Shown piece by piece: positions 2,850 to 60,150 of a DNA stretch of 64,000 nucleotides (positions within the stretch are counted from its first letter, which is position 1; every line of letters begins with the position of its first letter). Made by a program: the position numbers and the translations under genes. The notes under the pieces are model-generated. The model saw nothing but the letters and a program-made list of their open reading frames with translations, was not told the DNA's origin and searched no databases. The stretch is from the NCBI GenBank assembly GCA_039922475.1, contig JBDTEQ010000069.1, positions 549 to 64,548 of the forward strand, read 5' to 3'. Source of the DNA: Edaphobacter sp. Lineage in GTDB: Bacteria > Acidobacteriota > Terriglobia > Terriglobales > Acidobacteriaceae.

Positions 2850-4706
2850 ATGATTCTCGGGAAAAAGTCTATCGCCGGTCTAGCCCTGGCACTCTTCGTC
2901 GCAACAACTCTCCCAGCCGGAGCAAGCCTCCTGCACGGAAAGAAGAAGAAGGATGACGATGATCTCGCGACTTCGCGCAAACCCACAGCCGCGCAGAATG
3001 AGCTGATCAACAAGGCCATCCTCCGTGAAAAGGTCGTCGTTAAGACGATCAAGGAACGCGCACCGTTGGTGGAGACCTACATCCAGAACATGAAGCCCGA
3101 TCCCGTTCTGGGCCAGGTTCCCGAGTCCGACCAGCACTTTCTCAGCCGTGTCGACTTTAAAAGTGTCATTAATGACCAAACCTACGCGGTCAACAAGGAC
3201 ACGTCGACCGGAGCTACCGGCAGCAAGCTGGGATTCTTCAAGCACTCCCTCTCTACGGTCGCCAATCTCGGCGGCAGCCTTCACCTCACCTTCCATGAGG
3301 CTGGCTTCGTTCAGATGTTGCTGATGGATTCCAACAACTTTGACCGGCAGCACTACAAGTTCGGCTATGTGCGCAACGACTTCCTCGGCAACACTCCTAC
3401 CGCGGTCTTCGACGTGACCCCGATCTCGAGCAAGAAGGACTTCGGCCGCTTCTTTGGCCGCGTCTGGGTCGAGACCCGCAGCGGCAACGTCGTTCGCTTC
3501 AATGGCGATTTCGCCGGAACCCAGGAGGACCAGAAGGAGTTCTATCACTTCGACAGTTGGCGCACAAACGTTCAACCCGACCTTTGGCTGCCAACCTCGT
3601 TTTACGTTGAGGAGAGCGATCCCAAGAGTGTCTCCCGCACCCTCAAGTTCAAAGCCATTAACCACATCTGGGGCTACCTCCTGAAGGTTCCTCCGCCGGA
3701 GTCTGAAAACACCTCCATGGATGTCGTCGGCGCAACCGACGTCAGCAACGAGGCGCAGGACGTCAGCCCGCTCGGTGCCCAGCGCGCCTGGGTCCAGCAG
3801 GCTGAAGACAATATCGTCGAGCGCCTCTTCCAGGCTGGTCTTCTCGATGCGCCCAGCGAGTTCGACAAGACGCTGGAGGCCCTGGCGAACAATATTCTCG
3901 CCTACAACAACATCACACTCTCGAGGCCGATCCGCTGCCGTACGCTTCTGACCGAGCCTCTGGAGTCGCTCGCCATCGGCAACACGATCGTCATCTCCAA
4001 GAGCCTGCTCGATACCACCGGCGTAGTGACGCAGGATGGCGCACAGCAGATGGGCAACCTGAATGCGATTCTCGCCTTCCAGATCGCGCACATCATTCTT
4101 GCTCACCGGCTCGACACCAAGTACGCCTTCAACGATCGCCTGCTGTTCCCGTCAACGAGCGTGTTCAACCGCATCCCCATGCATCACACGGATGCCGACA
4201 ACACAGCGGCGGCCAAGAAAGCCATGGAGTTATTGAGCGCGAAGGAGCTGGAAGGCGGACAGCAGTACTTCAGCCTTTACCTGCAGCAACTGCAGCAGCG
4301 CGTCAAGAGCCTCAAGGCGCTCAATGAGCCCATGATCGGCGACGGCCTCGTCAAGAGCGACGATGATCCAACCTTCTGGATGGCGGCCATCGAATCCAAA
4401 GGACCCAAGCTCGACATGAAGGACCTCAAACAGCAGGCTGCAATGCCGCTGGCGAGCTTCCTGCGTTTCGACCCCTGGACCGATCAGGTGTTCGTCATGC
4501 ACACTGCGTTCGAGCCTCTGCTCACCGCAGCGGACAAGATGCCCTTCGAGGTTGAACCGGTTTATCTGAAGCTCAGCTACTATAAACCGCCAGTCGAGGC
4601 TGCTCCCGCACCTGCAACTGCTGCACCGGCTGCTGCTGACGCAACTGCTCCGGCAACTGCCGCAGCACCGGCAACTCCTCCACCAACAACGCCACAGCAG
4701 AACTGA
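2850..4706 (+). CDS. secreted M48-like (BepA/YfgC-type) domain protein with degenerate metal motif and an Ala/Pro-rich C-terminal tail
   Basis: 618-aa ORF with a signal-like N-terminus (SIAGLALALFVATTLPAGA). The segment GNTIVISKSLLD...LNAILAFQIAHIILAH resembles the M48 core, but HExxH is replaced by FQIAH. Confidence 0.7.
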   Translation: MILGKKSIAGLALALFVATTLPAGASLLHGKKKKDDDDLATSRKPTAAQNELINKAILREKVVVKTIKERAPLVETYIQNMKPDPVLGQVPESDQHFLSRVDFKSVINDQTYAVNKDTSTGATGSKLGFFKHSLSTVANLGGSLHLTFHEAGFVQMLLMDSNNFDRQHYKFGYVRNDFLGNTPTAVFDVTPISSKKDFGRFFGRVWVETRSGNVVRFNGDFAGTQEDQKEFYHFDSWRTNVQPDLWLPTSFYVEESDPKSVSRTLKFKAINHIWGYLLKVPPPESENTSMDVVGATDVSNEAQDVSPLGAQRAWVQQAEDNIVERLFQAGLLDAPSEFDKTLEALANNILAYNNITLSRPIRCRTLLTEPLESLAIGNTIVISKSLLDTTGVVTQDGAQQMGNLNAILAFQIAHIILAHRLDTKYAFNDRLLFPSTSVFNRIPMHHTDADNTAAAKKAMELLSAKELEGGQQYFSLYLQQLQQRVKSLKALNEPMIGDGLVKSDDDPTFWMAAIESKGPKLDMKDLKQQAAMPLASFLRFDPWTDQVFVMHTAFEPLLTAADKMPFEVEPVYLKLSYYKPPVEAAPAPATAAPAAADATAPATAAAPATPPPTTPQQN

Positions 4707-4825
4707 ACTTCAGAGCGTGGTCAGCCGATAGCCTTATACGGCTGTCCACGTTTTTTCACTGCCTGAGGCCAGTTTGCCTCAAAACATGAAACGCCGCACG
4801 TTTCAATTCCCAAGGAGGCACCCCG

Positions 4826-5368
4826 TTGAAGCGGCATATTCTTATCGGTTGGTTCGCCTGCGTCCTCGGTATAACCACCATGTCGCATGCTCAGGCGATC
4901 CCCACGGCTTCGCGCGTCAGTTCGATACAGGTTGGTGTTGGCGGCATGATCACCAGCCCCGACTACGCTCAGCAGCACATCAAAGGCGTGACACTCTACG
5001 GAGACTACAACTTCCAGCACAACATTGGAGTGGAGGGCGAGATACATTACTCCCTGATTACTCCGACTGACCTCAGCGAAAATACCTATCTGATCGGCCC
5101 GCGCTATGTTGTACGCCACAATAACTTCACCGGTTATCTCAAAGTGCTCGTTGGAATGGGTCGATTCGGAACCCAGGGAGGCAGCTTCGGAACCACCGCA
5201 ACCACCTCCTACACCGCGTATGCCTTCGGCGGCGGACTCGAATATATGGCACCCCACAATCTCAATGTCCGCATCTTCGATGTCGAACTCCAGAAGTGGC
5301 CCAGCTTTCCTACAAATGGCCTCTCACCGATCTCTTATTCGATCGGCGTCGCCTACGCCTTTCACTAG
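4826..5368 (+). CDS. small outer-membrane beta-barrel protein (OmpW/Opa-like porin family)
   Basis: TTG start 8 nt after AAGGAGG. Signal peptide MKRHILIGWFACVLGITTMSHAQA. Alternating beta-strand pattern with an aromatic C-terminus (IGVAYAFH). Confidence 0.75.
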   Translation: MKRHILIGWFACVLGITTMSHAQAIPTASRVSSIQVGVGGMITSPDYAQQHIKGVTLYGDYNFQHNIGVEGEIHYSLITPTDLSENTYLIGPRYVVRHNNFTGYLKVLVGMGRFGTQGGSFGTTATTSYTAYAFGGGLEYMAPHNLNVRIFDVELQKWPSFPTNGLSPISYSIGVAYAFH

Positions 5369-9766: not shown

Positions 9767-10891
9767 ATGCGTCTCAAAATTGCAGTTCTCGCCGGCGACG
9801 GCATCGGCCCCGAAGTCACCCGCGAAGCCACCAACATCCTCCGCGCAGTAGCCGAACTTGGCGGCCACGACTTCACCTTCGTCCCCGGCCTCATCGGCGG
9901 TATCGCCATCACTGAAACAGGTTCCCCGCTCCCCACCGCCACGCTCGACGCCGCACTTGAATGCGATGCAGTCCTCCTCGGCGCAGTCGGCGATAACAAA
10001 TTCAACGCGCTCCCGCCGGATAAGCGCCCCGAAGCCGGTCTCCTTCAAATCCGTCAGGCTCTCGGAGGCTTCGCCAATCTGCGTCCTTCGATCGCCTACA
10101 CCGCGCTCGCCGAAAGCTCCCCACTGCGCCCCGAGGTCACCAAAGACGTTGACATCCTCTTCGTCCGCGAACTTCTCGGCGGCCTCTACTTCGGCGCGCC
10201 GCGCTGGTGGAACAAGGAACCCGCATCTGGGGAACAGGAAGAAGCCATCAATACGATGCGCTACACCAAGGCTGAAGTCGTCCGCGTCGCCCGCATCGCA
10301 TTCGAACTTGCAGCCAAACGCCGCAACAAAGTCACCTCTGTCGATAAGGCCAACGTTCTCGAAGTCTCGCAGCTCTGGCGCGCCACCGTCACCGAAGTCG
10401 CGAAGGAGTATCCCAGCGTCACGCTCGAACATCAGCTCGTAGACTCCATGGCGATGCACATCATGAACATCCCGCGCAACTTCGATGTTGTCCTCACCGA
10501 AAACCTCTTCGGCGACATCCTCTCCGACGAGGCAGGCGTCATCACCGGCTCGCTCGGCATGTTGCCCTCGGCCACTATTGGCGGCGCAGTCAATCTCTAC
10601 GAGCCCGTTCACGGCAGCGCTCCGGACATCGCAGGCACAGGCAAAGCCAATCCACTCGGCGCAATCCTCACCGCTGCAATGATCCTGCGGCACTCGGCAA
10701 ATCTCGAACAGGATGCAAAAGCAATCGAACAAGCCGTCAACAAAGTTCTCAATGCCGGCTACCGCACCGCCGACATTGCACGAGGACAGCAACCCGGCCA
10801 GACCCCGGTCAGCACGCAGGAGATGGGCAAGCTCGTCCATCAGGCCCTGGCCGAATCCATCGACCGCCGCCAGGCCATGCACGCCGTATGA
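9767..10891 (+). CDS. leuB: 3-isopropylmalate dehydrogenase
   Basis: 374 aa. Motifs LAGDGIGPEV and ENLFGDILSDEA. Confidence 0.95.
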   Translation: MRLKIAVLAGDGIGPEVTREATNILRAVAELGGHDFTFVPGLIGGIAITETGSPLPTATLDAALECDAVLLGAVGDNKFNALPPDKRPEAGLLQIRQALGGFANLRPSIAYTALAESSPLRPEVTKDVDILFVRELLGGLYFGAPRWWNKEPASGEQEEAINTMRYTKAEVVRVARIAFELAAKRRNKVTSVDKANVLEVSQLWRATVTEVAKEYPSVTLEHQLVDSMAMHIMNIPRNFDVVLTENLFGDILSDEAGVITGSLGMLPSATIGGAVNLYEPVHGSAPDIAGTGKANPLGAILTAAMILRHSANLEQDAKAIEQAVNKVLNAGYRTADIARGQQPGQTPVSTQEMGKLVHQALAESIDRRQAMHAV

Positions 10892-11776: not shown

Positions 11777-13281
<1,505 letters not shown>

Positions 13282-16151: not shown

Positions 16152-17951
16152 ATGCCGAAAACGCATTTGAGCGCAAACAAAGATCAACACCCCCAACTCA
16201 CCGGCTCCGAAATCCTCTGGGCCACTCTCGTCGGCGAGGGCGTAGACAAAGTCTTCGGCTACCCCGGCGGAGCCATACTCCCCGCCTACGACGCGCTGCG
16301 CAAGTTCCCCATCCACCACATCCTCGTCCGGCACGAGCAGGGTGCCGCGCACATGGCCGACGGCTACGCCCGCGCCTCCGGCAAGGTCGGTGTCTGCATC
16401 GCGACCAGCGGCCCCGGCGCCACCAACCTCGTCACCGGCATCGCTACCGCCATGCTCGACTCCATCCCTATCGTCTGCATCACCGGCCAGGTTGGCAGCA
16501 AAGTCCTCGGGAGCGACGCATTTCAAGAGATCGACATCACCGGCATCACCCTGCCCATCACCAAGCACAACTACCTCGTCACCCGCGCCGAAGATATCGC
16601 CCCCGCCATTCGCGAGGCGTTCCAGATCGCGAAGTCCGGGCGTCCAGGTCCGGTACTCGTCGACATAACAAAAGACGCGCAACAAGCTACTGCGTCATTC
16701 AACTTCGAGACCGCCGCACCCAAGCCCTACCGCCCGCACCCCATGCTGCGCGCCGAATCCTCTTCGATCCAACAGGCCATCGAGCTAATCAAAGCCGCGA
16801 AGAAACCCGTCATCCTCGCCGGCCACGGCATCACACACTCTGGAGCTGAAGCCCAGGTCCTCGCCTTCGCCGAACGCCAGCAGATTCCCGTCGCCAGCAC
16901 GTTGCTCGGTCTCGGCGGAGTCCCCACAAATCATCCGCTCTCACTCGGCATGATGGGCATGCACGGCGAGTCGTGGGTGAACAATGCAATCCAACAGGCC
17001 GACCTTCTCCTCGCCTTCGGGATGCGCTTCGACGACCGCGTCACCGGCAACCTGGCGCTCTACGCTCCCAACGCGAAGAAGATCCACATCGAGATCGACC
17101 CTTCCGAGATCAACAAGAACGTCCGCGCCGACGTAGCCCTCATCGGCGATCTCAAAGAAGTCCTCGAACTCCTCCTCCCACTGCTCGAAACTTGTCATCC
17201 TTCGCGCAGCGGAGGACCTGCTTCTCGCACTTCTCCCTGGCTCCGCGAGATCAACGTTATGAAGGGCGACGCCGCCGTCCGCGACATCATCAACCTGCCA
17301 GACAACGGCCACCTCTACGCCGCCCACGTCATCAACGACATCTGGCGCGAAGCCCACGCCGCCGGCCGCGCCGACCAGACCATCATCGTCACCGACGTAG
17401 GCCAGCACCAGATGTGGGAGGCCCAGTACTACAAGCACGACACCCCGCGCTCGCTCATCACCTCAGGCGGCCTCGGCACCATGGGCTTCGCTCTACCTGC
17501 AGCCATCGGCGCAAAGGTCGCCTGCCCGGAGAAAGATGTCTGGGTCATCGCCGGCGACGGCGGCTTTCAGATGACCGCCGCCGAACTCTCCACCATCGTG
17601 CAGGAAAACCTCGCCATCAACATCGCCGTCATCAACAACGGCTTCCTCGGCATGGTCCGCCAGTGGCAGGAGGCCTTCTACGACAAGAACTACGCCGCCT
17701 CCCCCATCCTCTCGCCCGACTTCGTCAAGCTAGCCGCAGCCCACGGCATCGACGGCGCAACCGTCAACAAGCGCCAGAGTGTAACCCCCACAGTCACAAA
17801 AGCGCGCACCAGCGGCAAACCTTTCCTCATCAACTTCCAGGTAGAAAAAGAAGACGGCGTCTACCCCATGATCGCCCCCGGCTCCGCCCTCCACGAGATG
17901 GTCCGCAGGCCACAAAAAGACCCGCTCCTCGAAACCGCGGAGGATGAGTAA
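16152..17951 (+). CDS. ilvB: acetolactate synthase large subunit, carrying an in-frame repeat insertion
   Basis: 599 aa. ThDP-enzyme motifs GYPGGAILP, GLGTMGFALPAAIGA and GDGGFQM. Extra segment [17 protein letters not shown]. Confidence 0.95.
   Translation: MPKTHLSANKDQHPQLTGSEILWATLVGEGVDKVFGYPGGAILPAYDALRKFPIHHILVRHEQGAAHMADGYARASGKVGVCIATSGPGATNLVTGIATAMLDSIPIVCITGQVGSKVLGSDAFQEIDITGITLPITKHNYLVTRAEDIAPAIREAFQIAKSGRPGPVLVDITKDAQQATASFNFETAAPKPYRPHPMLRAESSSIQQAIELIKAAKKPVILAGHGITHSGAEAQVLAFAERQQIPVASTLLGLGGVPTNHPLSLGMMGMHGESWVNNAIQQADLLLAFGMRFDDRVTGNLALYAPNAKKIHIEIDPSEINKNVRADVALIGDLKEVLELLLPLLETCHPSRSGGPASRTSPWLREINVMKGDAAVRDIINLPDNGHLYAAHVINDIWREAHAAGRADQTIIVTDVGQHQMWEAQYYKHDTPRSLITSGGLGTMGFALPAAIGAKVACPEKDVWVIAGDGGFQMTAAELSTIVQENLAINIAVINNGFLGMVRQWQEAFYDKNYAASPILSPDFVKLAAAHGIDGATVNKRQSVTPTVTKARTSGKPFLINFQVEKEDGVYPMIAPGSALHEMVRRPQKDPLLETAEDE
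17193..17233 (+). repeat. family-A repeat (short form), in frame inside ilvB
   Basis: tgtcatccttcgcgcagcggaggacctgcttctcgcacttc. It starts exactly on a codon boundary and is 39/40 identical to the intergenic copy at 13293. Confidence 0.9.
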
Positions 17952-31367: not shown

Positions 31368-31452
31368 GGAGGGGGGAGTTCAATGCACCGGGCGACCTGC
31401 GGGCATCACAGCATCTCGCGGAGGGGGAAATTCAGTGCACCGGGCGACCTAC
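31368..31452 (-). repeat. 33-nt direct repeat (29/33) duplicating the 3' end of the SRP RNA gene plus its flank
   Basis: 31368-31400 ggaggggggagttcaatgcaccgggcgacctgc versus 31420-31452 ggagggggaaattcagtgcaccgggcgacctac. Confidence 0.8.
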
Positions 31453-31533
31453 TGCGCCCATAATTACCCGTTACCGTTGCTTCCTTCCGGACCTGGCGGG
31501 GTTGGCGGGATTACGTCGCGTAGGACCCGGCAC
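31435..31533 (-). ncRNA. ffs: signal recognition particle RNA (small 4.5S type)
   Basis: The minus strand contains AGGUCCGGAAGGAAGCAACGG (plus 31475-31497), matching the conserved helix-8 GGAA tetraloop region. The termini pair (GUGCCGGGUCCUACGCG with CGCAGUAGGUCGCCCGGUGCAC). About 99 nt. Confidence 0.8.
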
Positions 31534-31696: not shown

Positions 31697-31875
31697 GTAG
31701 TATCGACATATAGTTGGGTCTTAAATCTTGATTTTTTAAGGACTGTCATCCTGAGCGCAGCCTCTCGCAGCATTATCGCGAGAGGCGGAGTCGAAGGACC
31801 TGCGGTTTGCTCCTGGCGTCACTCTCGTTTTGCCCCATTCGCGGCAACACCTTGTCATCTATATGTCGATACTGC
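31697..31875. repeat. 17-nt inverted repeat pair (15/17) bracketing a family-A copy
   Basis: gtagtatcgacatatag (31697-31713) and ctatatgtcgatactgc (31859-31875). Confidence 0.6.
31744..31813 (+). repeat. family-A repeat (long form)
   Basis: tgtcatcctgagcgcagcctctcgcagcattatcgcgagaggcggagtcgaaggacctgcggtttgctcc. Internal 9-bp hairpin GCCTCTCGC/GCGAGAGGC. Confidence 0.9.
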
Positions 31876-33289: not shown

Positions 33290-35053
33290 GTGCCGTTTTC
33301 CGCCCAAAATTCTTCCAATAACGCTGTCCTGGACCCCGCCTTACCCGACCAGCCTCACGCGAAACCCAAGGTAGGCTTCGTCTCTCTCGGCTGCCCCAAA
33401 AACCTCGTAGACTCCGAGGTCATGATGGGCCTGCTCCACCACAACGGAGCCGAGCTCACCCCCAACGCCGAAGACGCCGAGATCATCGTCATCAACACCT
33501 GCAGCTTCATCGACTCCGCCAAGCAGGAGTCCGTCAACACCATCCTCGAAATGGTCCAGCTCAAGCAGCAGAACGGCGGAAAAGCCCAGCGCATCGTAGT
33601 CGCCGGCTGCCTCGTCGAGCGCTACCGCGACGAGATTCAAAAAAACATCCCCGAAGTAGATGCCGTCGTAGGCACCGGCGAACTCGAAGCCATTCTCTCC
33701 GCCGCCGGCCTCACCCCCACCGGCCACGCCAACAACTCCCCTTTCAACATCCTTCCTCGATCCACAAATTCGGGTACCCCATCTACACCGCAGTCTCATC
33801 GCGGTTTAGGTGGGCATTCGCAAAGCGAACCGCCTTCCTCCAACGAACCGCTGATCTCAAGAGCCCCCAGCGCCGTCCACCAGCACTCCCACCCCACCGA
33901 AATCGGCACTCAACTAAAAGATCAAAATAGAACTGTCATCCTGAGCGAAGGCGCAGCAGTAGTCGAAGGACCTGCGGTTATCTCTGGACAAACCAGTCGT
34001 CCCGAAGGCGACGCCCGCGAGCAATCCGGCCGCTTCTCCCGCGCCTCATGGGACGGAGCCACCGCCGCCCTCCCCGAATACCTCTACTCCGACGAAACTC
34101 CGCGCATCCTCACCACCCCGCGCGCCAGCGCCTACATCAAGATCGCCGAAGGCTGCGACCACCCCTGCAGCTTCTGCATCATCCCGCAGCTTCGTGGCAA
34201 GTTCCGCTCCCGCCGCATGTCGTCGATCATCCGCGAGGCCGAAAACCTCATCGCACAGGGCGTCCGCGAGATCACCCTCATCGGCCAGGACACCACCTGC
34301 TACGGCGAAGACCTCGGCCTCACCGAAAACGGAGAACCGGTCGGCCTCTCGCAACTTCTCGAAGCACTGGCCGTACTCCCCGGCCTCCGCTGGCTACGCT
34401 TTCTCTATACCTACCCCAACAAAGTAACCACGCGCCTCCTCGAAACAATGGCGAAGCACGACACCATCGCAAAGTACCTCGACGTTCCTCTCCAGCACGC
34501 AAGCCCCAGCGTCCTCAAACGGATGAAGCGCGGCGGCAACGCACAGATCTTCCTCGACCTCATCGCCAGGGCGCGCCGCATCGTCCCCGGCATCGTCATC
34601 CGCACCAGCTTCATCGTCGGCTTCCCCGGCGAAACCGAAGCCGACTACAAAGAACTCGAAGCCTTCATCACCGCCGCAAAGATCGACTGGCTAGGCGTCT
34701 TCACCTACTCCGACGAAGAGGGCGCCAAGGCCTTCGAACTAGCCGACGAACTCAAAATCCCCAACCGCACCATCCAGTCGCGCCGCAACAAACTGATGAA
34801 GCTGCAACAAAAGATCAGCACCAGATCCAAAGCCGCCTGGGTAGGCCGCGAGATCGACCTCCTTGTCGAAGGAGAATCCGAAGAGACCGAACTCCTCTGG
34901 CAGGGCCGCACCCCGCTCCACGCCCCCGAGATCGACGGCAAAGTCCTCATCAACGACTTCGGCCCTCACGAAACCCTGGTCCCCGGTACTTTCTACCGAG
35001 CCGAAATCACCGAATCCCACGACTACGACGTAGTAGCCCGCATCCTCGAATAG
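33290..35053 (+). CDS. rimO: ribosomal protein S12 methylthiotransferase with a ~130-aa insertion containing two repeat elements
   Basis: 587 aa with a GTG start. MTTase N-domain VGFVSLGCPKNLVDSE, radical-SAM CDHPCSFCIIP and a TRAM C-terminus. E. coli RimO is 441 aa. Confidence 0.9.
   Translation: MPFSAQNSSNNAVLDPALPDQPHAKPKVGFVSLGCPKNLVDSEVMMGLLHHNGAELTPNAEDAEIIVINTCSFIDSAKQESVNTILEMVQLKQQNGGKAQRIVVAGCLVERYRDEIQKNIPEVDAVVGTGELEAILSAAGLTPTGHANNSPFNILPRSTNSGTPSTPQSHRGLGGHSQSEPPSSNEPLISRAPSAVHQHSHPTEIGTQLKDQNRTVILSEGAAVVEGPAVISGQTSRPEGDAREQSGRFSRASWDGATAALPEYLYSDETPRILTTPRASAYIKIAEGCDHPCSFCIIPQLRGKFRSRRMSSIIREAENLIAQGVREITLIGQDTTCYGEDLGLTENGEPVGLSQLLEALAVLPGLRWLRFLYTYPNKVTTRLLETMAKHDTIAKYLDVPLQHASPSVLKRMKRGGNAQIFLDLIARARRIVPGIVIRTSFIVGFPGETEADYKELEAFITAAKIDWLGVFTYSDEEGAKAFELADELKIPNRTIQSRRNKLMKLQQKISTRSKAAWVGREIDLLVEGESEETELLWQGRTPLHAPEIDGKVLINDFGPHETLVPGTFYRAEITESHDYDVVARILE
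33772..33832 (+). repeat. family-D double-hairpin repeat, in frame inside rimO
   Basis: gggtaccccatctacaccgcagtctcatcgcggtttaggtgggcattcgcaaagcgaaccg. Same architecture as 36155 and 39561 (GGGTRCCCCAT...hairpin...GTGGGCAT + TCGYR-aaa/gaa-hairpin + CCG). Confidence 0.7.
33934..33984 (+). repeat. family-A repeat (long form), in frame inside rimO
   Basis: tgtcatcctgagcgaaggcgcagcagtagtcgaaggacctgcggttatctc, translated as (T)VILSEGAAVVEGPAVIS. Confidence 0.85.
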
Positions 35054-35159: not shown

Positions 35160-35203
35160 TGTCATCCTTCGCGAAGCGGAGGACCTGCTGTCGCTCTTCA
35201 CCG
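35160..35203 (+). repeat. family-A repeat (short form)
   Basis: tgtcatccttcgcgaagcggaggacctgctgtcgctcttcaccg, downstream of rimO. Confidence 0.9.
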
Positions 35204-35215
35204 TTCCCTCTTCAT

Positions 35216-35270
35216 TGTCATCCTTCGCAAAGCGGAGGATCCGCTGCTGTCCCTTGCCGTCGTCGCCGCT
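35216..35270 (+). repeat. family-A repeat (short form)
   Basis: tgtcatccttcgcaaagcggaggatccgctgctgtcccttgccgtcgtcgccgct, tandem to the copy at 35160. Confidence 0.9.
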
Positions 35271-36139: not shown

Positions 36140-36206
36140 GCCCCAAACGGGTGCGGGTGCCCCATATCTCGATTTTGAGATGTGGGCATCGTGCGGAGCA
36201 CGACCG
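36140..36206 (+). repeat. family-D double-hairpin repeat, starting 2 nt after the yacG stop
   Basis: gccccaaacgggtgcgggtgccccatatctcgattttgagatgtgggcatcgtgcggagcacgaccg. Confidence 0.85.
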
Positions 36207-36257
36207 GCTTTTGTTAAGACTTCCCTCAAATAAAAGTCCTGCTCCCTGCAAAGATAA

Positions 36258-36365
36258 CCTCCCTGAATGGAAGACTTTACCTCAATATCCAGCCTTTCTC
36301 AACCGGAAGTCCGAACCTAACCCACCTGAATCGAAGACTTTACGCACATTCAGGCGGGTGGGGGG
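36258..36365 (+). repeat. direct repeat pair sharing CCTGAATSGAAGACTTTAC (18/19)
   Basis: Copies lie at 36262-36280 and 36325-36343. The second copy lies in the hairpin CCCACCTGAAT...ATTCAGGCGGGTGGG. Confidence 0.6.
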
Positions 36366-36391
36366 ATATACACCCGCTACACTAAAAGCCG

Positions 36392-36901
36392 ATGCCGAAC
36401 TCCTCTGCACAACTCCACCCTCCCGCCAAAAAGAAGACCCTCTGGGCCTGGCTCATCGGCACCTTCTTCGGAGCAGGCCTGCTCAAACCCGGTCCCGGCA
36501 CCTACGGCAGCATCTCCGCCGTCCTCCTCTGGTACGCCGCCGCCCACATTCTCCACCCAACCCCCACCACCCTGGCCGTCGGCACAGTTATAGCCGCAGT
36601 CGCAGTCACATTAATCGGCATCCCCGCTGCCACCATCGTAGCCCGCGAATCCGGCCGCGAAGACCCCGGCCATGTCGTCATCGACGAGGTAGCCGGCCAA
36701 CTCATCGCCCTCATCGCCATCCCCATCGACTGGCAGCACGCCGCAATCTCTCTCATCCTCTTCCGCCTCTTCGACATCCTCAAGCCGCCACCCATCCGCC
36801 AACTCGAACGCCTACCCACCGGCACCGGTATCATGCTCGACGACGTAGCCGCCGGCCTCTTCGCCCTCGCCGTCGCGCAACTCATCCATCTCCGCTTCTA
36901 G
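36392..36901 (+). CDS. pgpA: phosphatidylglycerophosphatase A
   Basis: 169 aa. GAGLLKPGPGTYGS, DPGHVVIDEVAGQ and FRLFDILKPPPI. Confidence 0.9.
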   Translation: MPNSSAQLHPPAKKKTLWAWLIGTFFGAGLLKPGPGTYGSISAVLLWYAAAHILHPTPTTLAVGTVIAAVAVTLIGIPAATIVARESGREDPGHVVIDEVAGQLIALIAIPIDWQHAAISLILFRLFDILKPPPIRQLERLPTGTGIMLDDVAAGLFALAVAQLIHLRF

Positions 36902-36915
36902 TAAGCCTCCAAAAA

Positions 36916-37082
36916 CCGTAACGGTGATCAAACGGATCAAAGGGATCAAAACGATAAGACCTGATACGAGAAGAGCATGACCGAACCTGCCTTTTTTGTT
37001 GAATCGGCCTTCCTGATTCCTTTGCCTTTTTTATCGTCTTATCGCTCTTATCCGCTTCTATCCCTTCGATCACCGTTACGCC
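36916..37082. repeat. two family-E repeats in inverted orientation (36916-36960 and 37031-37082)
   Basis: ccgtaacggtgatcaaacggatcaaagggatcaaaacgataagac versus ttatcgtcttatcgctcttatccgcttctatcccttcgatcaccgttacgcc. The outer 13 nt are perfectly complementary (CGTAACGGTGATC). Confidence 0.8.
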
Positions 37083-39550: not shown

Positions 39551-39612
39551 GCCACAAACCCGGGTGCCCCATATCTCGACTCTGAGATGTGGGCATCGTG
39601 CGAAGCACGACC
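39551..39612 (+). repeat. family-D double-hairpin repeat, starting 5 nt after the cinA stop
   Basis: gccacaaacccgggtgccccatatctcgactctgagatgtgggcatcgtgcgaagcacgaccg. Confidence 0.85.
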
Positions 39613-39699
39613 GCTCCCGCCCCTCTCGATATACCCGCAACTCTGAGCCAAGGCATCTTCACCGCATCGCGCCATCTTGCTAAACTCATCCAAACGATC

Positions 39700-52050: not shown

Positions 52051-52191
52051 TTAAGAGTCCCCGCTGTTGCTGTTGCAGTCGCAGTCGCAGTCGCAGTTGC
52101 AGTTGCAGTCGCAGTTGCAGTTGCAGTCGCAGTCGCAGTCGCAGTTGCAGTCGCAGTTACAGTTGCTGTTGGCTGCCCTTTTGGTTGTCAT
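52051..52191 (-). CDS. possible 46-aa Cys-rich peptide, (C-D/N)15 core, encoded on the microsatellite
   Basis: My translation: MTTKRAANSNCNCDCNCDCDCDCNCNCDCNCNCDCDCDCNSNSGDS*. The ATG lies inside a family-A repeat and the SD is weak. Below the 60-aa ORF-track cutoff. Confidence 0.2.
   Translation of the reverse strand: MTTKRAANSNCNCDCNCDCDCDCNCNCDCNCNCDCDCDCNSNSGDS
52063..52170. repeat. hexanucleotide microsatellite (GYWGTY)18, mostly GCAGTC/GCAGTT
   Basis: 108 nt of uninterrupted 6-nt periodicity. Confidence 0.95.
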
Positions 52192-52222: not shown

Positions 52223-52235
52223 TTTATAGTCCGAC

Positions 52236-52293
52236 GGGTGGCCCATCCTTTGCGCTTTTTGCAAAGGGTGGGTTATCGAGCGAAGCTCGACCG
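52236..52293 (+). repeat. family-D-like double-hairpin repeat
   Basis: gggtggcccatcctttgcgctttttgcaaagggtgggttatcgagcgaagctcgaccg. Confidence 0.7.
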
Positions 52294-52312
52294 CCTTACC
52301 CCCAAAAAGAAT

Positions 52313-52407
52313 CGTCATCTCGACCGGAGCAACAGACAGTCTCATCGTCTGTTGCGCAGTGGAGAGATCCCCGCATTTCGCTTTTGTCTTTGCTGTTGCC
52401 CGTTCTC
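52313..52407 (+). repeat. family-B repeat
   Basis: cgtcatctcgaccggagcaacagacagtctcatcgtctgttgcgcagtggagagatccccgcatttcg plus a T/G-rich tail. Second copy at 57805. Confidence 0.9.
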
Positions 52408-56346: not shown

Positions 56347-56428
56347 CCACAACCCTTGTCGCCCTTTCCACAACCCTTGTCCTCCTTTCCACAACCCTTG
56401 TCGTACTTTCCGCAACCATTGTCATCAA
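56347..56428 (+). repeat. 21-nt tandem array (about 3.9 units) CCACAACCCTTGTCNNNCTTT fused to the 5' end of a family-A repeat
   Basis: Units at 56347, 56368 and 56389, plus a degenerate unit at 56410. Each unit carries CCCTTGTC, the same sequence that precedes ATCC at the element junction (56430-56440). Confidence 0.9.
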
Positions 56429-57711: not shown

Positions 57712-57804
57712 GACTGGCTGGTAGGGAGCTAGCCCCGCATAAGGAACGCGGATTTAGACGCATAATGGCTGTTGCCCTTGCCTTTTCTTGTCACCCAACA
57801 AAAC

Positions 57805-57915
57805 CGTCATTTCGACCGAAGCCACTCACGGTCTCATCGTGAGTGGCGCAGTGGAGAAATCCCCGCATTTCGTCGTTGCCATTGGCTTTTGCCGATCTGC
57901 TCTTGCCCTTCTTGT
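57805..57915 (+). repeat. family-B repeat
   Basis: cgtcatttcgaccgaagccactcacggtctcatcgtgagtggcgcagtggagaaatccccgcatttcg plus a tail. The inner stem differs from copy 52313 by compensatory changes. Confidence 0.9.
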
Positions 57916-58641: not shown

Positions 58642-60150
58642 ATGGTTATCGTGAATACCAGTCTCTTCGAACTCTTCAAAATCGGTATCGGCCCCTCGAG
58701 CTCCCACACCGTCGGCCCCATGCGAGCAGCGCTCCGCTTCACCCGCGAACTCGCTGCCGCAGACCTCCTCGATAAAACCGCAAAGGTCTCCGTCGACCTC
58801 TACGGCTCCCTCGCCCTCACCGGAATCGGCCACGGCACCGACCGAGCCATCCTCCTCGGTCTCCTCGGGGAAGCGCCCAACACCGTAGACCCCGCCACCG
58901 TCGAAGAAAAGATCGCCGCCATCCGCAAAACCAACTCCCTCGCCCTCGGCGGCTGCAAGACAATCCCCTTCACCGAATCCGAAGACCTGACCTTCCACCG
59001 CAACCAGATGTACCCGGATCCCGCCATCCACTCCCACCCCAACGGCATGCACTTCACCGCCTTCGATAACACCGGACGAAAGCTCGCTGACGAAATCTTC
59101 TACTCCATCGGCGGAGGCTTCATCGTCTCGGAAGCCGAGCGCACCGCCGAAGCCTCCACCAGCACCCGCAAAGTCCCCTACCCCTTCCGCAGCGCCGCCG
59201 ACCTCCTCTCCACCGCAAAGCAAAACAATCTCACCATCGCAGAACTCCTCCTCGCCAACGAGGTCGCACTTCTCAACGACCCGAAGATTGCCATCACCCG
59301 CCCCCAGCCTTCAGTAGTTGAAGGTTGTCATCCTTCGCGAAGCGGAGGACCTGCTTCTTCCTCCTCAGCCATAGCTTCATCCCCCGAGGAAAAAATCAAA
59401 GCCAGCATCCTCGCCATCTGGCGCGTCATGCAGGAGTGCACCGAACGTGGCATCGCAACCGAAGGCATCCTCCCCGGAGGCCTCAACGTTCGCCGCCGCG
59501 CCTACCGCCTCGCCGAGCGCCTCAACACCATCGGCTCCAAAGACCCACTCGCACCCATCGACTGGGTCACCGTCTACGCCATGGCCGTCAACGAAGAGAA
59601 CGCAGCAGGAGGCAGAGTCGTCACCGCGCCCACCAATGGAGCAGCCGGCGTCATCCCCGCCATCGCCAACTACTACACCCACTTCATCGAAGGGACCGAA
59701 TCGGAGAAAGAAGAAGGCATCCTCCGCTACTTCCTCACCGCCGCCGCCATCGGCATTCTCTACAAGGAAAACGCCAGCATCTCCGGGGCAGAAGTCGGCT
59801 GCCAGGGAGAAGTCGGTGTAGCCTGCAGCATGGCCGCGGGAGGATTAGTCGCCGCCCTCAACGGAACCAACGCGCAAGTTGAACACGCTGCCGAGATCGG
59901 AATGGAACACAACCTCGGCATGACCTGCGACCCCATCGGCGGCCTCGTCCAGATCCCCTGCATCGAGCGCAACGGCATGGGAGCCGTCAAAGCCATCAAC
60001 GCCTGCCGCATGGCCATGCACGAGTCCGGCGACCACAAGCTCTCCCTCGACCAGATCATCGCCACCATGTACCAGACCGGCCTCGACATGCAGTCCCGCT
60101 ACAAGGAAACCTCCCTCGCCGGCCTCGCCCTCAACATCATCGAGTGCTGA
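58642..60150 (+). CDS. sdaA: L-serine ammonia-lyase (Fe-S, single chain), carrying an in-frame repeat insertion
   Basis: 502 aa. [17 protein letters not shown]-terminus. E. coli SdaA is 454 aa. Extra segment [23 protein letters not shown]. Confidence 0.9.
59326..59364 (+). repeat. family-A repeat (short form), in frame inside sdaA
   Basis: tgtcatccttcgcgaagcggaggacctgcttcttcctcc. Same reading frame ([11 protein letters not shown]) as the ilvB copy. Confidence 0.9.

Follow-up and report, generated by a model that had tools for sequence, protein, structure and literature searches.

The 64,000-nucleotide stretch of Edaphobacter sp. DNA analysed here (contig JBDTEQ010000069.1; the whole of it is called the window) contains a rimO gene in which two short dispersed repeats, one of family D and one of family A, lie within the reading frame. 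Both were located in the linker that joins the N-terminal methylthiotransferase domain to the radical-SAM domain, each at a site of its own, and in related genomes both sites were found occupied, differently occupied or vacant. Very probably, these are dispersed repeats that entered the gene in frame and were tolerated in hot spots of a linker whose contents turn over. The positions of all features are collected in Table 1.

The rimO open reading frame (ORF) was uninterrupted from its GTG start to its stop codon, with no internal stop or frameshift, either of which the initial annotation had named as the mark of a pseudogene. Its product matched TIGR01125, the RimO equivalog, over its full length with a whole-protein score of 492.4 bits (cut-off, 356.95), and Pfam located UPF0004 at residues 27-128, Radical_SAM at 284-459 and TRAM_2 at 518-585. 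Cysteines C35, C71, C107, C289, C293 and C296 were unchanged across 34 relatives. By score, domains and cysteines, the predicted protein is a member of the RimO (S12 methylthiotransferase) family. The GTG start was backed by homologues beginning MPFSAQNPS, which favour the 587 amino acids (aa) considered here over the 574 aa of the public gene call for the same protein (P0001), corresponding to a CTG start 13 codons downstream.

The closest solved structure was that of Thermotoga maritima RimO (4JC0; E = 2.2e-90), with which the window protein shares the three-domain layout and both cysteine triads. Residues 27-138 of the window protein aligned to residues 2-110 of 4JC0, and residues 262-582 to residues 122-426, leaving an interdomain connector of 123 residues in the former versus 11 in the latter, a net gain of ~112 aa; the remaining excess over the 441-aa RimO of E. 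coli was an N-terminal extension. An insertion of ~130 aa built around two repeats had been proposed for this linker. The two repeats stood, whereas the size had to be lowered to ~112 aa, of which ~55 (29 + 26) come from the elements; the other extra residues are an older extension of the linker, conserved at the family or order level. A linker of this kind was not shared by distant RimO proteins, a point on which the initial annotation had made its proposal depend: the insert was absent from the T. maritima protein and did not align to the RimO profile.

Family D and family A elements in the rimO reading frame

The family D copy at site 1, translated as SGTPSTPQSHRGLGGHSQSEP, had been read from the sequence as a double hairpin, and this was borne out together with its translation. 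The segment 33765-33840 adopted a fold of two hairpins with a closing stem (-14.9 kcal/mol, z = -3.9), and none of 200 shuffles folded as well. The window copies at 39553-39618 and 36146-36211 were near-identical to each other, with a 3-bp closing stem and hairpins of 10 and 6 bp (z = -3.9 and -5.1, respectively); the rimO copy folded in the same way, although its first hairpin was longer and its second differed from theirs in sequence. Since hairpin 1 differs, nhmmer with family D seeds reached only the leader of the rimO copy, and a covariance model was required. This model (R1) was built from 10 D copies from the window and related loci, the rimO site-1 copy and its orthologues being excluded. 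In the alignment of these 10 copies, 82% of the structure was paired and eight pairs changed on both sides, a number matched by 1 of 500 shuffles, while the covariation score was reached by none of the 500. R1 matched rimO at 33763-33838 over the full model length (E = 2.6e-7, 32 bits), and it also found the orthologous rimO copies of loci L082 (E = 3.7e-9) and L081 (E = 5.5e-6). The rimO copy combined the leader CACAAA..CGGGTGCCCCA, hairpin 1, hairpin 2 and the CGG/CCG closing stem, the features by which family D was jointly defined.

The family A element at site 2 was identified by its boxes, as the segment 33934-33975 fits the pattern TGTCATCCTGAGCGAAG-N11-GTCGAAGGACCTGC exactly. With a gap of 4-34 nucleotides (nt), the two-box pattern matched over 119 stretches in the species-genome collection, every one from Acidobacteriaceae/Terriglobales. 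BLAST matched the rimO element to the window copies at 12562-12607 and 31739-31812, the similarity extending to the tail GGTTnnCTCyTGG, and its 3' tail up to ~33990 resembles that of the intergenic copy at 31744. The rimO copy is read in the frame giving VILSEGAAVVEGPAV, whereas the copies in leuC, ilvB and sdaA are read in the other open frame (CHPERS..); the frame difference noted in the initial annotation was thus confirmed by the translations. These three genes were intact despite their in-frame units, their products scoring as LeuC, IlvB and SdaA. Across 126 family A copies, the architecture consisted of an A-rich leader, box 1, an inner hairpin with a variable stem, CGNA, box 2, TT and a pyrimidine-rich tail, and subtypes without hairpin, with inner segments of 9-11 nt, were also present. 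The rimO copy is of this short-inner type: its 11 inner nt, GCGCAGCAGTA, formed no hairpin, and the fold of the copy was not significant (z = -0.9).

The two elements had been described as nested. They lie instead side by side, ~100 nt apart, at two sites with a conserved block between them. The linker contains two conserved blocks that are not repeat-derived, SRAPSAVHQHSHPTE in the Acidobacteriaceae and SRPEGDAREQSGRFSRxxWDGATAALPEYLY in the whole order, and these flank the two variable positions. Block RPEGDAREQSGRFSRASWDGATAALPEYLY was kept in all 80 Terriglobales RimO proteins compared, whereas T. maritima RimO lacks it; the block is an addition specific to the order and does not derive from repeats. 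The description of the elements as unrelated also proved too strong. The loop GCAGTCTCATCGC of the rimO D copy (33790-33802) recurs both within the L082 element at site 2 and in family A units elsewhere, where it belongs to the inner hairpin (L082 at 10456-10468 and 10637-10649; A long-form copies in L101, L128, L142 and L150), and the two families may share a hairpin module.

Turnover of the two linker sites among relatives

Occupancy of the two sites was compared in 80 Terriglobales loci and 120 close proteins, ~190 orthologues overall. The best match among the 80 loci was 84% identical in aa sequence, and hence the window's own species is not in the collection. Site 1, which lies after SPFNILPQS, was vacant in most relatives. 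It held GAPSTPQSHRGLGGHSQSEP in the window and in proteins P0002, P0003 and P0006, and shortened forms in P0033, P0070/78, P0097 and P0118; a decay series ran from GAPSTPQSHRGLGG... through GAPPQSRGDAS... and GAGAPSQNPAQDLIS to GAASPSQDLIS. In the DNA alignment, the 87-nt D insertion formed a clean block, which the window, L081, L082 and L084 carry and which L085, L086, L004 and the nearest relatives, L001, L002 and L083, lack. In another Acidobacteriaceae genome (L077), site 1 of the rimO linker (3440-3900) was filled with six D-like units in tandem, past which come a long poly-C tract and then a frameshift; this rimO is a pseudogene, or else a homopolymer error of the assembly is responsible.

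At site 2, which lies before SRPEG, at least five alternative cassettes were found among ~120 close relatives. In the window, the surplus over the shortest empty allele (L081) was D211-S236 (78 nt), and the cassette measured 78-81 nt. The family A long form (VILSEG..VEGPAV) was carried by ~35 of the 120 close proteins; the other states in this set were an A-like unit (VIPSERSESRNPRIS, VILSxAKNPRIS), D-type units (GAPxLDSEMW, some with a nested EPALSLSKG), a run of CTACTCC heptamers (PSTPYSLLPTP), GGPSFAVSSQRVG and the empty site. The A cassette was orthologous, with common flanks, in the window, L083, L085 and L086, and in L004 its inner hairpin was intact. Alleles with D only, A only, neither and both were all seen among relatives 83-87% identical, and the reading frame was kept in 187 of 190 orthologues.

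The frequency of insertion in this linker was compared with that elsewhere by using a D profile built from two window D copies only (called intergenic), with which 695 kb of DNA were searched. Eight non-seed matches were obtained at E<0.01, of which seven lay in rimO linkers (L010, L019, L020, L025, L029, L030 and L077), all oriented as rimO; such linkers represented 25.6 kb, or 3.7%, of the DNA searched. Among 22 other Acidobacteriota orthologues of leuC, a single one (L207) had its insertion site occupied. Because the D matches are concentrated in rimO linkers, unlike the situation at the leuC site, the RimO linker is a real hot spot for repeat elements. The suggestion that it serves as a permissive landing pad was accordingly upheld by this concentration, by the varied or absent cassettes at the same positions and by the length of the segment from GTGE to AYIKIAEGC, which ranged from 77 to 228 aa in the 80 Terriglobales loci.

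In a nucleotide tree of 10 genes, the window was placed beside L001, which has neither element, with 84% bootstrap support, and the D carriers formed a clade in none of 300 bootstrap replicates. By sliding identity, the window scored 0.99 with L001 at the 5' end (first 50 codons) and 0.99 with L082 over alignment columns 416-465, where the value for L084 was 0.80. Given the mosaic rimO and the lack of monophyly among the D carriers, the linker alleles of the window, L001 and L081-L086 have, as judged from these alignments, likely been reassorted by homologous recombination between lineages. A comparison of strains had been proposed as a way to see stepwise acquisition of the two elements; all four D/A states do exist, but their order is unreadable owing to the recombination mosaic, and the attempt to order the acquisitions of D and A was abandoned on account of mosaicism and the non-monophyletic D carriers. 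A neighbour-joining tree of ~190 core proteins was too poorly resolved at 83-87% identity to count independent gains and was discarded.

Additional family A copies were seen near rimO in several relatives. In L083, an intergenic A long-form copy (9847-9887), located ~115-155 nt upstream of the rimO start, was identical at 41 of 41 positions to the intragenic copy at 10574-10614, the window orthologue of which differs at two inner positions; the identical pair suggests recent copying or gene conversion. Immediately downstream of rimO, identical family A short units were found inverted ~400 nt apart in L003, at 4865-4892 (+) and 5268-5295 (-), and the same arrangement was seen in L010, at 4756-4785 (+) and 5161-5190 (-). 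Each inverted pair might enclose a small gene or form part of a composite element.

Strand polarity, retention and alternative explanations

Family A occurs inside genes across the order. Among A long-form copies from other genomes, 22 of 84 were spanned by frames that stay open for 60 codons or more to either side. Ten of these 22 spanning ORFs were scanned and eight corresponded to recognisable genes, coding for GlmS, a copper-type P-type ATPase, a class II aminoacyl-tRNA synthetase, an M28 peptidase, a PMT glycosyltransferase, a glutamine-amidotransferase-domain protein and two TPR proteins. In 4-5 of the six frames, most copies contain no stop (for the rimO D copy this holds in two); therefore, a length divisible by three is the main hurdle to in-frame insertion.

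All 15 elements of the window (11 of family A and four of family D) are single units on the + strand. The GC skew of this strand was between -0.11 and -0.37 across the whole 64 kb, and it remained negative over genes encoded on the minus strand, namely those for TopA, DprA, a TonB-type outer-membrane protein, Rho, a ComM-like protein, OmpA and a thiolase. Therefore, the skew marks the replication strand and not transcription. In other genomes (loci L088-L206), 115 of 126 A long-form copies lay on the C-rich strand, and at |skew| > 0.1 the numbers were 98 versus 2. The elements are thus polarised relative to the replication strand, and because this bias is so strong, the most likely route of mobilisation, as judged from polarity only, would be as single-stranded hairpin DNA during replication, by an enzyme of the Y1/HUH type.

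Families A and D are short (~45-90 nt), non-coding, hairpin-forming dispersed repeats of Terriglobales, two of which joined the rimO reading frame. Each would have been tolerated through a length divisible by three, the lack of stops in the frame used and its position in a permissive linker between the Fe-S N-domain and the radical-SAM domain, one that had been long and poorly conserved beforehand and was probably unstructured. The enzyme would be made with two additional peptides of 29 and 26 residues, which we infer to be neutral passengers and not functional modules. In the course of evolution, the hot spots probably pass through cycles of arrival, decay by substitutions and in-frame deletions, replacement by other elements and reshuffling by homologous recombination.

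Several observations weigh against parts of this account. An exact search of 185,579 species genomes found the inner hairpin of the rimO D copy nowhere else except in rimO of the L082 genome. Because its inner hairpin occurs elsewhere only in this one relative's rimO, the D copy is an old, lineage-specific derivative and not a recent arrival, and the idea that the rimO variant represents a many-copy subfamily was rejected by the same search. The translation of the insert and the activity of the window RimO are predictions from sequence. The disorder of the insert is weakly suggested by an AlphaFold2 model obtained with a shallow alignment of 34 sequences (mean predicted local distance difference test score, pLDDT, 50.2; predicted template modelling score, pTM, 0.38) and used only for relative confidence, in which residues 150-237 lacked secondary structure and, with a pLDDT of 23-27, were the least confident part of a poor overall model. 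Movement of the elements was deduced from their distribution and never observed; no mobilising gene was found, though no search for a Y1 gene was made, and no target-site duplication was detected for the elements. The one candidate for such a duplication, an 8-nt direct repeat, CCTTCCTC, flanks the D copy in the window only; it is not shared by the orthologous copies of L081 and L082 and is partly element tail.

The sequence of the D core also bears on neutrality. Between carriers, the whole site-1 insertion was 73-88% identical at the DNA level, versus 89-91% for the core gene. The D core, by contrast, was identical at 61 of 63 positions among three carriers, and its third codon positions at 20-21 of 21, compared with an expectation of ~0.79 from the 78-80% identity of core-gene third positions. 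This hints at nucleotide-level constraint or gene conversion, and not at pure neutrality. The fourth carrier (82-86% identical in the core; 82% in the constraint test) showed no excess conservation, however, and the signal of this test was weak and inconsistent. The inserted peptide is under relaxed constraint, and there is at most a weak hint of conservation at the nucleotide level.

Retention of the inserts for a function, either as mRNA hairpins involved in translational pausing or mRNA stability, or as a protein spacer that tunes length or flexibility, would fit the D core exceeding synonymous-site conservation in three carriers, the stability of the D hairpin (-14.9 kcal/mol) and the presence of some site-2 cassette in almost every close relative. 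We consider it unlikely, as empty alleles at both sites are found in close relatives (L001, L002, L081, P0053 and P0089), the cassettes resemble one another neither in sequence nor in length, divergence is seen in the fourth D carrier, the fold of the rimO A copy is not significant (z = -0.9) and the peptide evolves faster than the core gene. There is very little to recommend the view that the long linker is an ancestral functional module of acidobacterial RimO and its resemblance to repeats coincidental. It is true that some linker segments (SRAPSAVHQHSHPTE; SRPEGDAREQSGRFSR..WDGATAALP) show conservation at the family or order level and are not repeat-derived, but both repeat segments are polymorphic among relatives 83-87% identical, both match dispersed intergenic repeats (D at E = 2.6e-7; A by exact boxes of 17 + 14 nt, 31 nt in all) and other genes read this DNA in different frames. 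This view is contradicted for the two elements and holds only for the conserved blocks. That rimO of the window is a pseudogene, or its insert an assembly artefact made by repeats, is extremely improbable: the frameshift of L077 past a poly-C tract beside a D array speaks for it, yet the window ORF is uninterrupted with complete domains, and the same in-frame insertions were present in independent assemblies from different samples (D in L081, L082 and L084; A in L083, L085 and L086). Self-splicing or bypassing of the insert was also rejected, as these hairpins of 45-90 nt are devoid of such features and the frame is kept in 187 of 190 orthologues.

The account of in-frame repeats tolerated in a permissive linker could be refined, without being excluded, if insertion were actively targeted, that is, favoured at or near existing hairpins, remnants or a motif in the linker. 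D copies are denser in rimO linkers (7-8 in 25.6 kb) than in the remaining ~670 kb searched, intergenic DNA included, different families land within a few codons of one another at site 2, and the leuC site, unlike the rimO linker, is filled in just 1 of 22 other Acidobacteriota orthologues. In the same direction point the D leader followed by a second, different hairpin unit in L082, the six tandem D-like units of L077 and the inner hairpin of the rimO D copy, which is of the type seen within A units. Against this, neither a conserved target motif nor a target duplication came to light, the profile, being tuned to a single subfamily, could have under-counted intergenic copies in other species, and common ancestry plus recombination inflate the number of independent events. 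Targeting thus seems possible, though on balance doubtful. A broader proposal, rather unlikely as it stands, is that A, D and the other cassettes belong to one modular, replication-strand-polarised hairpin system of Terriglobales, with modules such as the stem-variable hairpin with the loop AGTCTCATC, which an uncharacterised Y1/HUH-type enzyme would move as single-stranded DNA and which would home to existing hairpins. If this were true, linkers like that of RimO would be continually rewritten, and the system would be an ongoing generator of linker diversity in housekeeping proteins and not a source of rare accidents.

Related repeat systems and other features of the window

Insertion of Rickettsia palindromic elements (RPEs) in frame in protein-coding genes was reportedly described by Ogata and colleagues in 2000. 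RPEs occur in frame in housekeeping genes of Rickettsia, the host genes remaining intact and the peptide being placed at positions compatible with the fold (PMC10969869, PMC3733652). The rimO elements are likewise in-frame palindromic inserts in an intact host gene, a functional resemblance and not a family assignment. In contrast to the reduced genomes of intracellular Rickettsia, the window belongs to a lineage of free-living soil Acidobacteriaceae with large genomes; A and D measure 45-90 nt versus ~100-150 nt for RPEs; and in rimO a single linker is hit repeatedly with cassette turnover, the elements being strongly biased to one replication strand.

Also comparable are the intragenic repetitive extragenic palindromic (REP) sequences of the GTAG/CGTC-tagged superfamilies, small stem-loops that are mostly intergenic, a minority being in frame and encoding 20-30 aa (Di Nocera et al. 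2013; PMC3733652). Double REP insertions are known in uvrA of O. terrae, and different REPs were found at about the same site of recB in two Xanthomonas species (PMC3733652). Like these, A and D are small stem-loop repeats, some of them in frame in known genes. The GTAG/CGTC head, however, was found neither at the consensus ends of A (TGTCATCC... / ...CCTGCGG) nor at those of D (CGGGTGCCCC... / ...CGACCG), and A and D are single units in one orientation and not inverted dimers, with a layout of box, variable hairpin and box in A. Replication-coupled transposition of single strands has been described, and class 3 Y1 enzymes are flanked by atypical secondary structures in Acidobacteria (PMC6006769). 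Hairpin repeats and a replication-oriented bias are shared by A and D with the REP/REPIN-RAYT and IS200/IS605-type Y1/HUH systems, although A and D lack REP doublets and the Y1 link would follow from polarity only. Intragenic enterobacterial repetitive intergenic consensus (ERIC)/RU elements (PMC2759123) and bacterial transposable elements of the miniature inverted-repeat type (MITEs) are non-autonomous small repeats with open frames that can form in-frame fusions (PMC2759123, PMC2229807, PMC10969869). A and D are also small repeats with open frames that join genes in frame, but they are much shorter than typical MITEs, and neither terminal inverted repeats matching known insertion sequences nor target-site duplications were seen.

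Literature searches retrieved no description of these acidobacterial A and D repeats. The phenomenon is known in kind, the novelty being the lineage, the element families and an unusually active hot spot in the linker of one enzyme. In-frame colonisation of housekeeping genes by palindromes, best known from Rickettsia, is thus common in an abundant free-living soil group, and the RimO linker offers an unusually clear natural experiment on insertion tolerance in the linker of a two-cluster enzyme, on element decay and on tolerance versus targeting. The elements inflate and vary protein lengths, create spurious 'hypothetical' motifs (VILSEG..VEGPA, CHPERS.., GAPHLDSEMW) and can cause assembly or frameshift errors in metagenome-assembled genomes. 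Their replication-strand polarity is a lead on how they are mobilised.

Table 1. Positions of rimO, its domains and linker segments, and of family A and D copies in the window
Feature	Position	Strand	Remarks
rimO coding sequence	33290..35053	+	GTG start, 587 aa; based on ORF, TIGR01125 and Pfam
UPF0004 N-terminal methylthiotransferase domain	aa 27-128, 33368..33673	+	Pfam; holds C35, C71 and C107
Hypervariable interdomain linker	aa 132-277, 33683..34120	+	equivalent segment 77-228 aa in 80 orthologues
Family D core in rimO	33763..33838	+	CACAAA leader, CGG/CCG closing stem, extended hairpin 1, hairpin 2; read TNSGTPSTPQSHRGLGGHSQSEPPS
Site-1 insertion	33767..33853	+	87 nt, 29 codons, N160-L188; from DNA/codon alignments and protein comparison
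Conserved spacer block ISRAPSAVHQHSHPTEIGTQL	33854..33916	+	between both hot spots, Acidobacteriaceae-wide
Site-2 variable cassette	33917..33997	+	K210-S236; family A unit with A-rich leader and pyrimidine-rich tail
Family A long-form element in rimO	33934..33990	+	box 1 TGTCATCCTGAGCGAAG, 11-nt inner segment, box 2 GTCGAAGGACCTGC, tail GGTTATCTCTGGAC; read VILSEGAAVVEGPAVISG
Order-wide linker block RPEGDAREQSGRFSRASWDGATAALPEYLY	33998..34087	+	not repeat-derived, predicted helical
Radical-SAM CxxxCxxC motif	34154..34177	+	C289, C293 and C296
Predicted tryptic peptides spanning element junctions in RimO			GLGGHSQSEPPSSNEPLISR, TVILSEGAAVVEGPAVISGQTSRPEGDAR
Family A long-form copy	12562..12607	+	in frame in leuC
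Family A short-form copy	17193..17223	+	in frame in ilvB
Family A long-form copy	31744..31805	+	intergenic, intact 9-bp inner hairpin
Two family A short-form copies	35160-35190, 35216-35246	+	directly downstream of rimO
Family A short-form copy	59326..59356	+	in frame in sdaA
Family D copy	36146..36211	+	5' edge of ORF 36151-36921
Family D copy	39553..39618	+	intergenic
Divergent family D copy, GGPSFALFAKGG type	52227..52298	+	covariance model R1, E = 1.5e-7

The ORF at 36151-36921, at the 5' edge of which a D copy lies, matched no protein family. A scan of the whole window against Rfam 15 (E<=1) returned no family for A or D, the only matches being a signal recognition particle (SRP) RNA and a spurious isrG. 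The former is a bacterial small SRP RNA at 31435-31532 on the - strand (66.8 bits, E = 1.4e-12), and the latter arises from a tandem hexamer array, (GCAGTY)n, at 52051-52182. Other repeats of the window were a 21-nt tandem repeat at 56347-56426 and a 112-nt repeat present in two copies, 75% identical, at 52295-52406 and 57787-57898.

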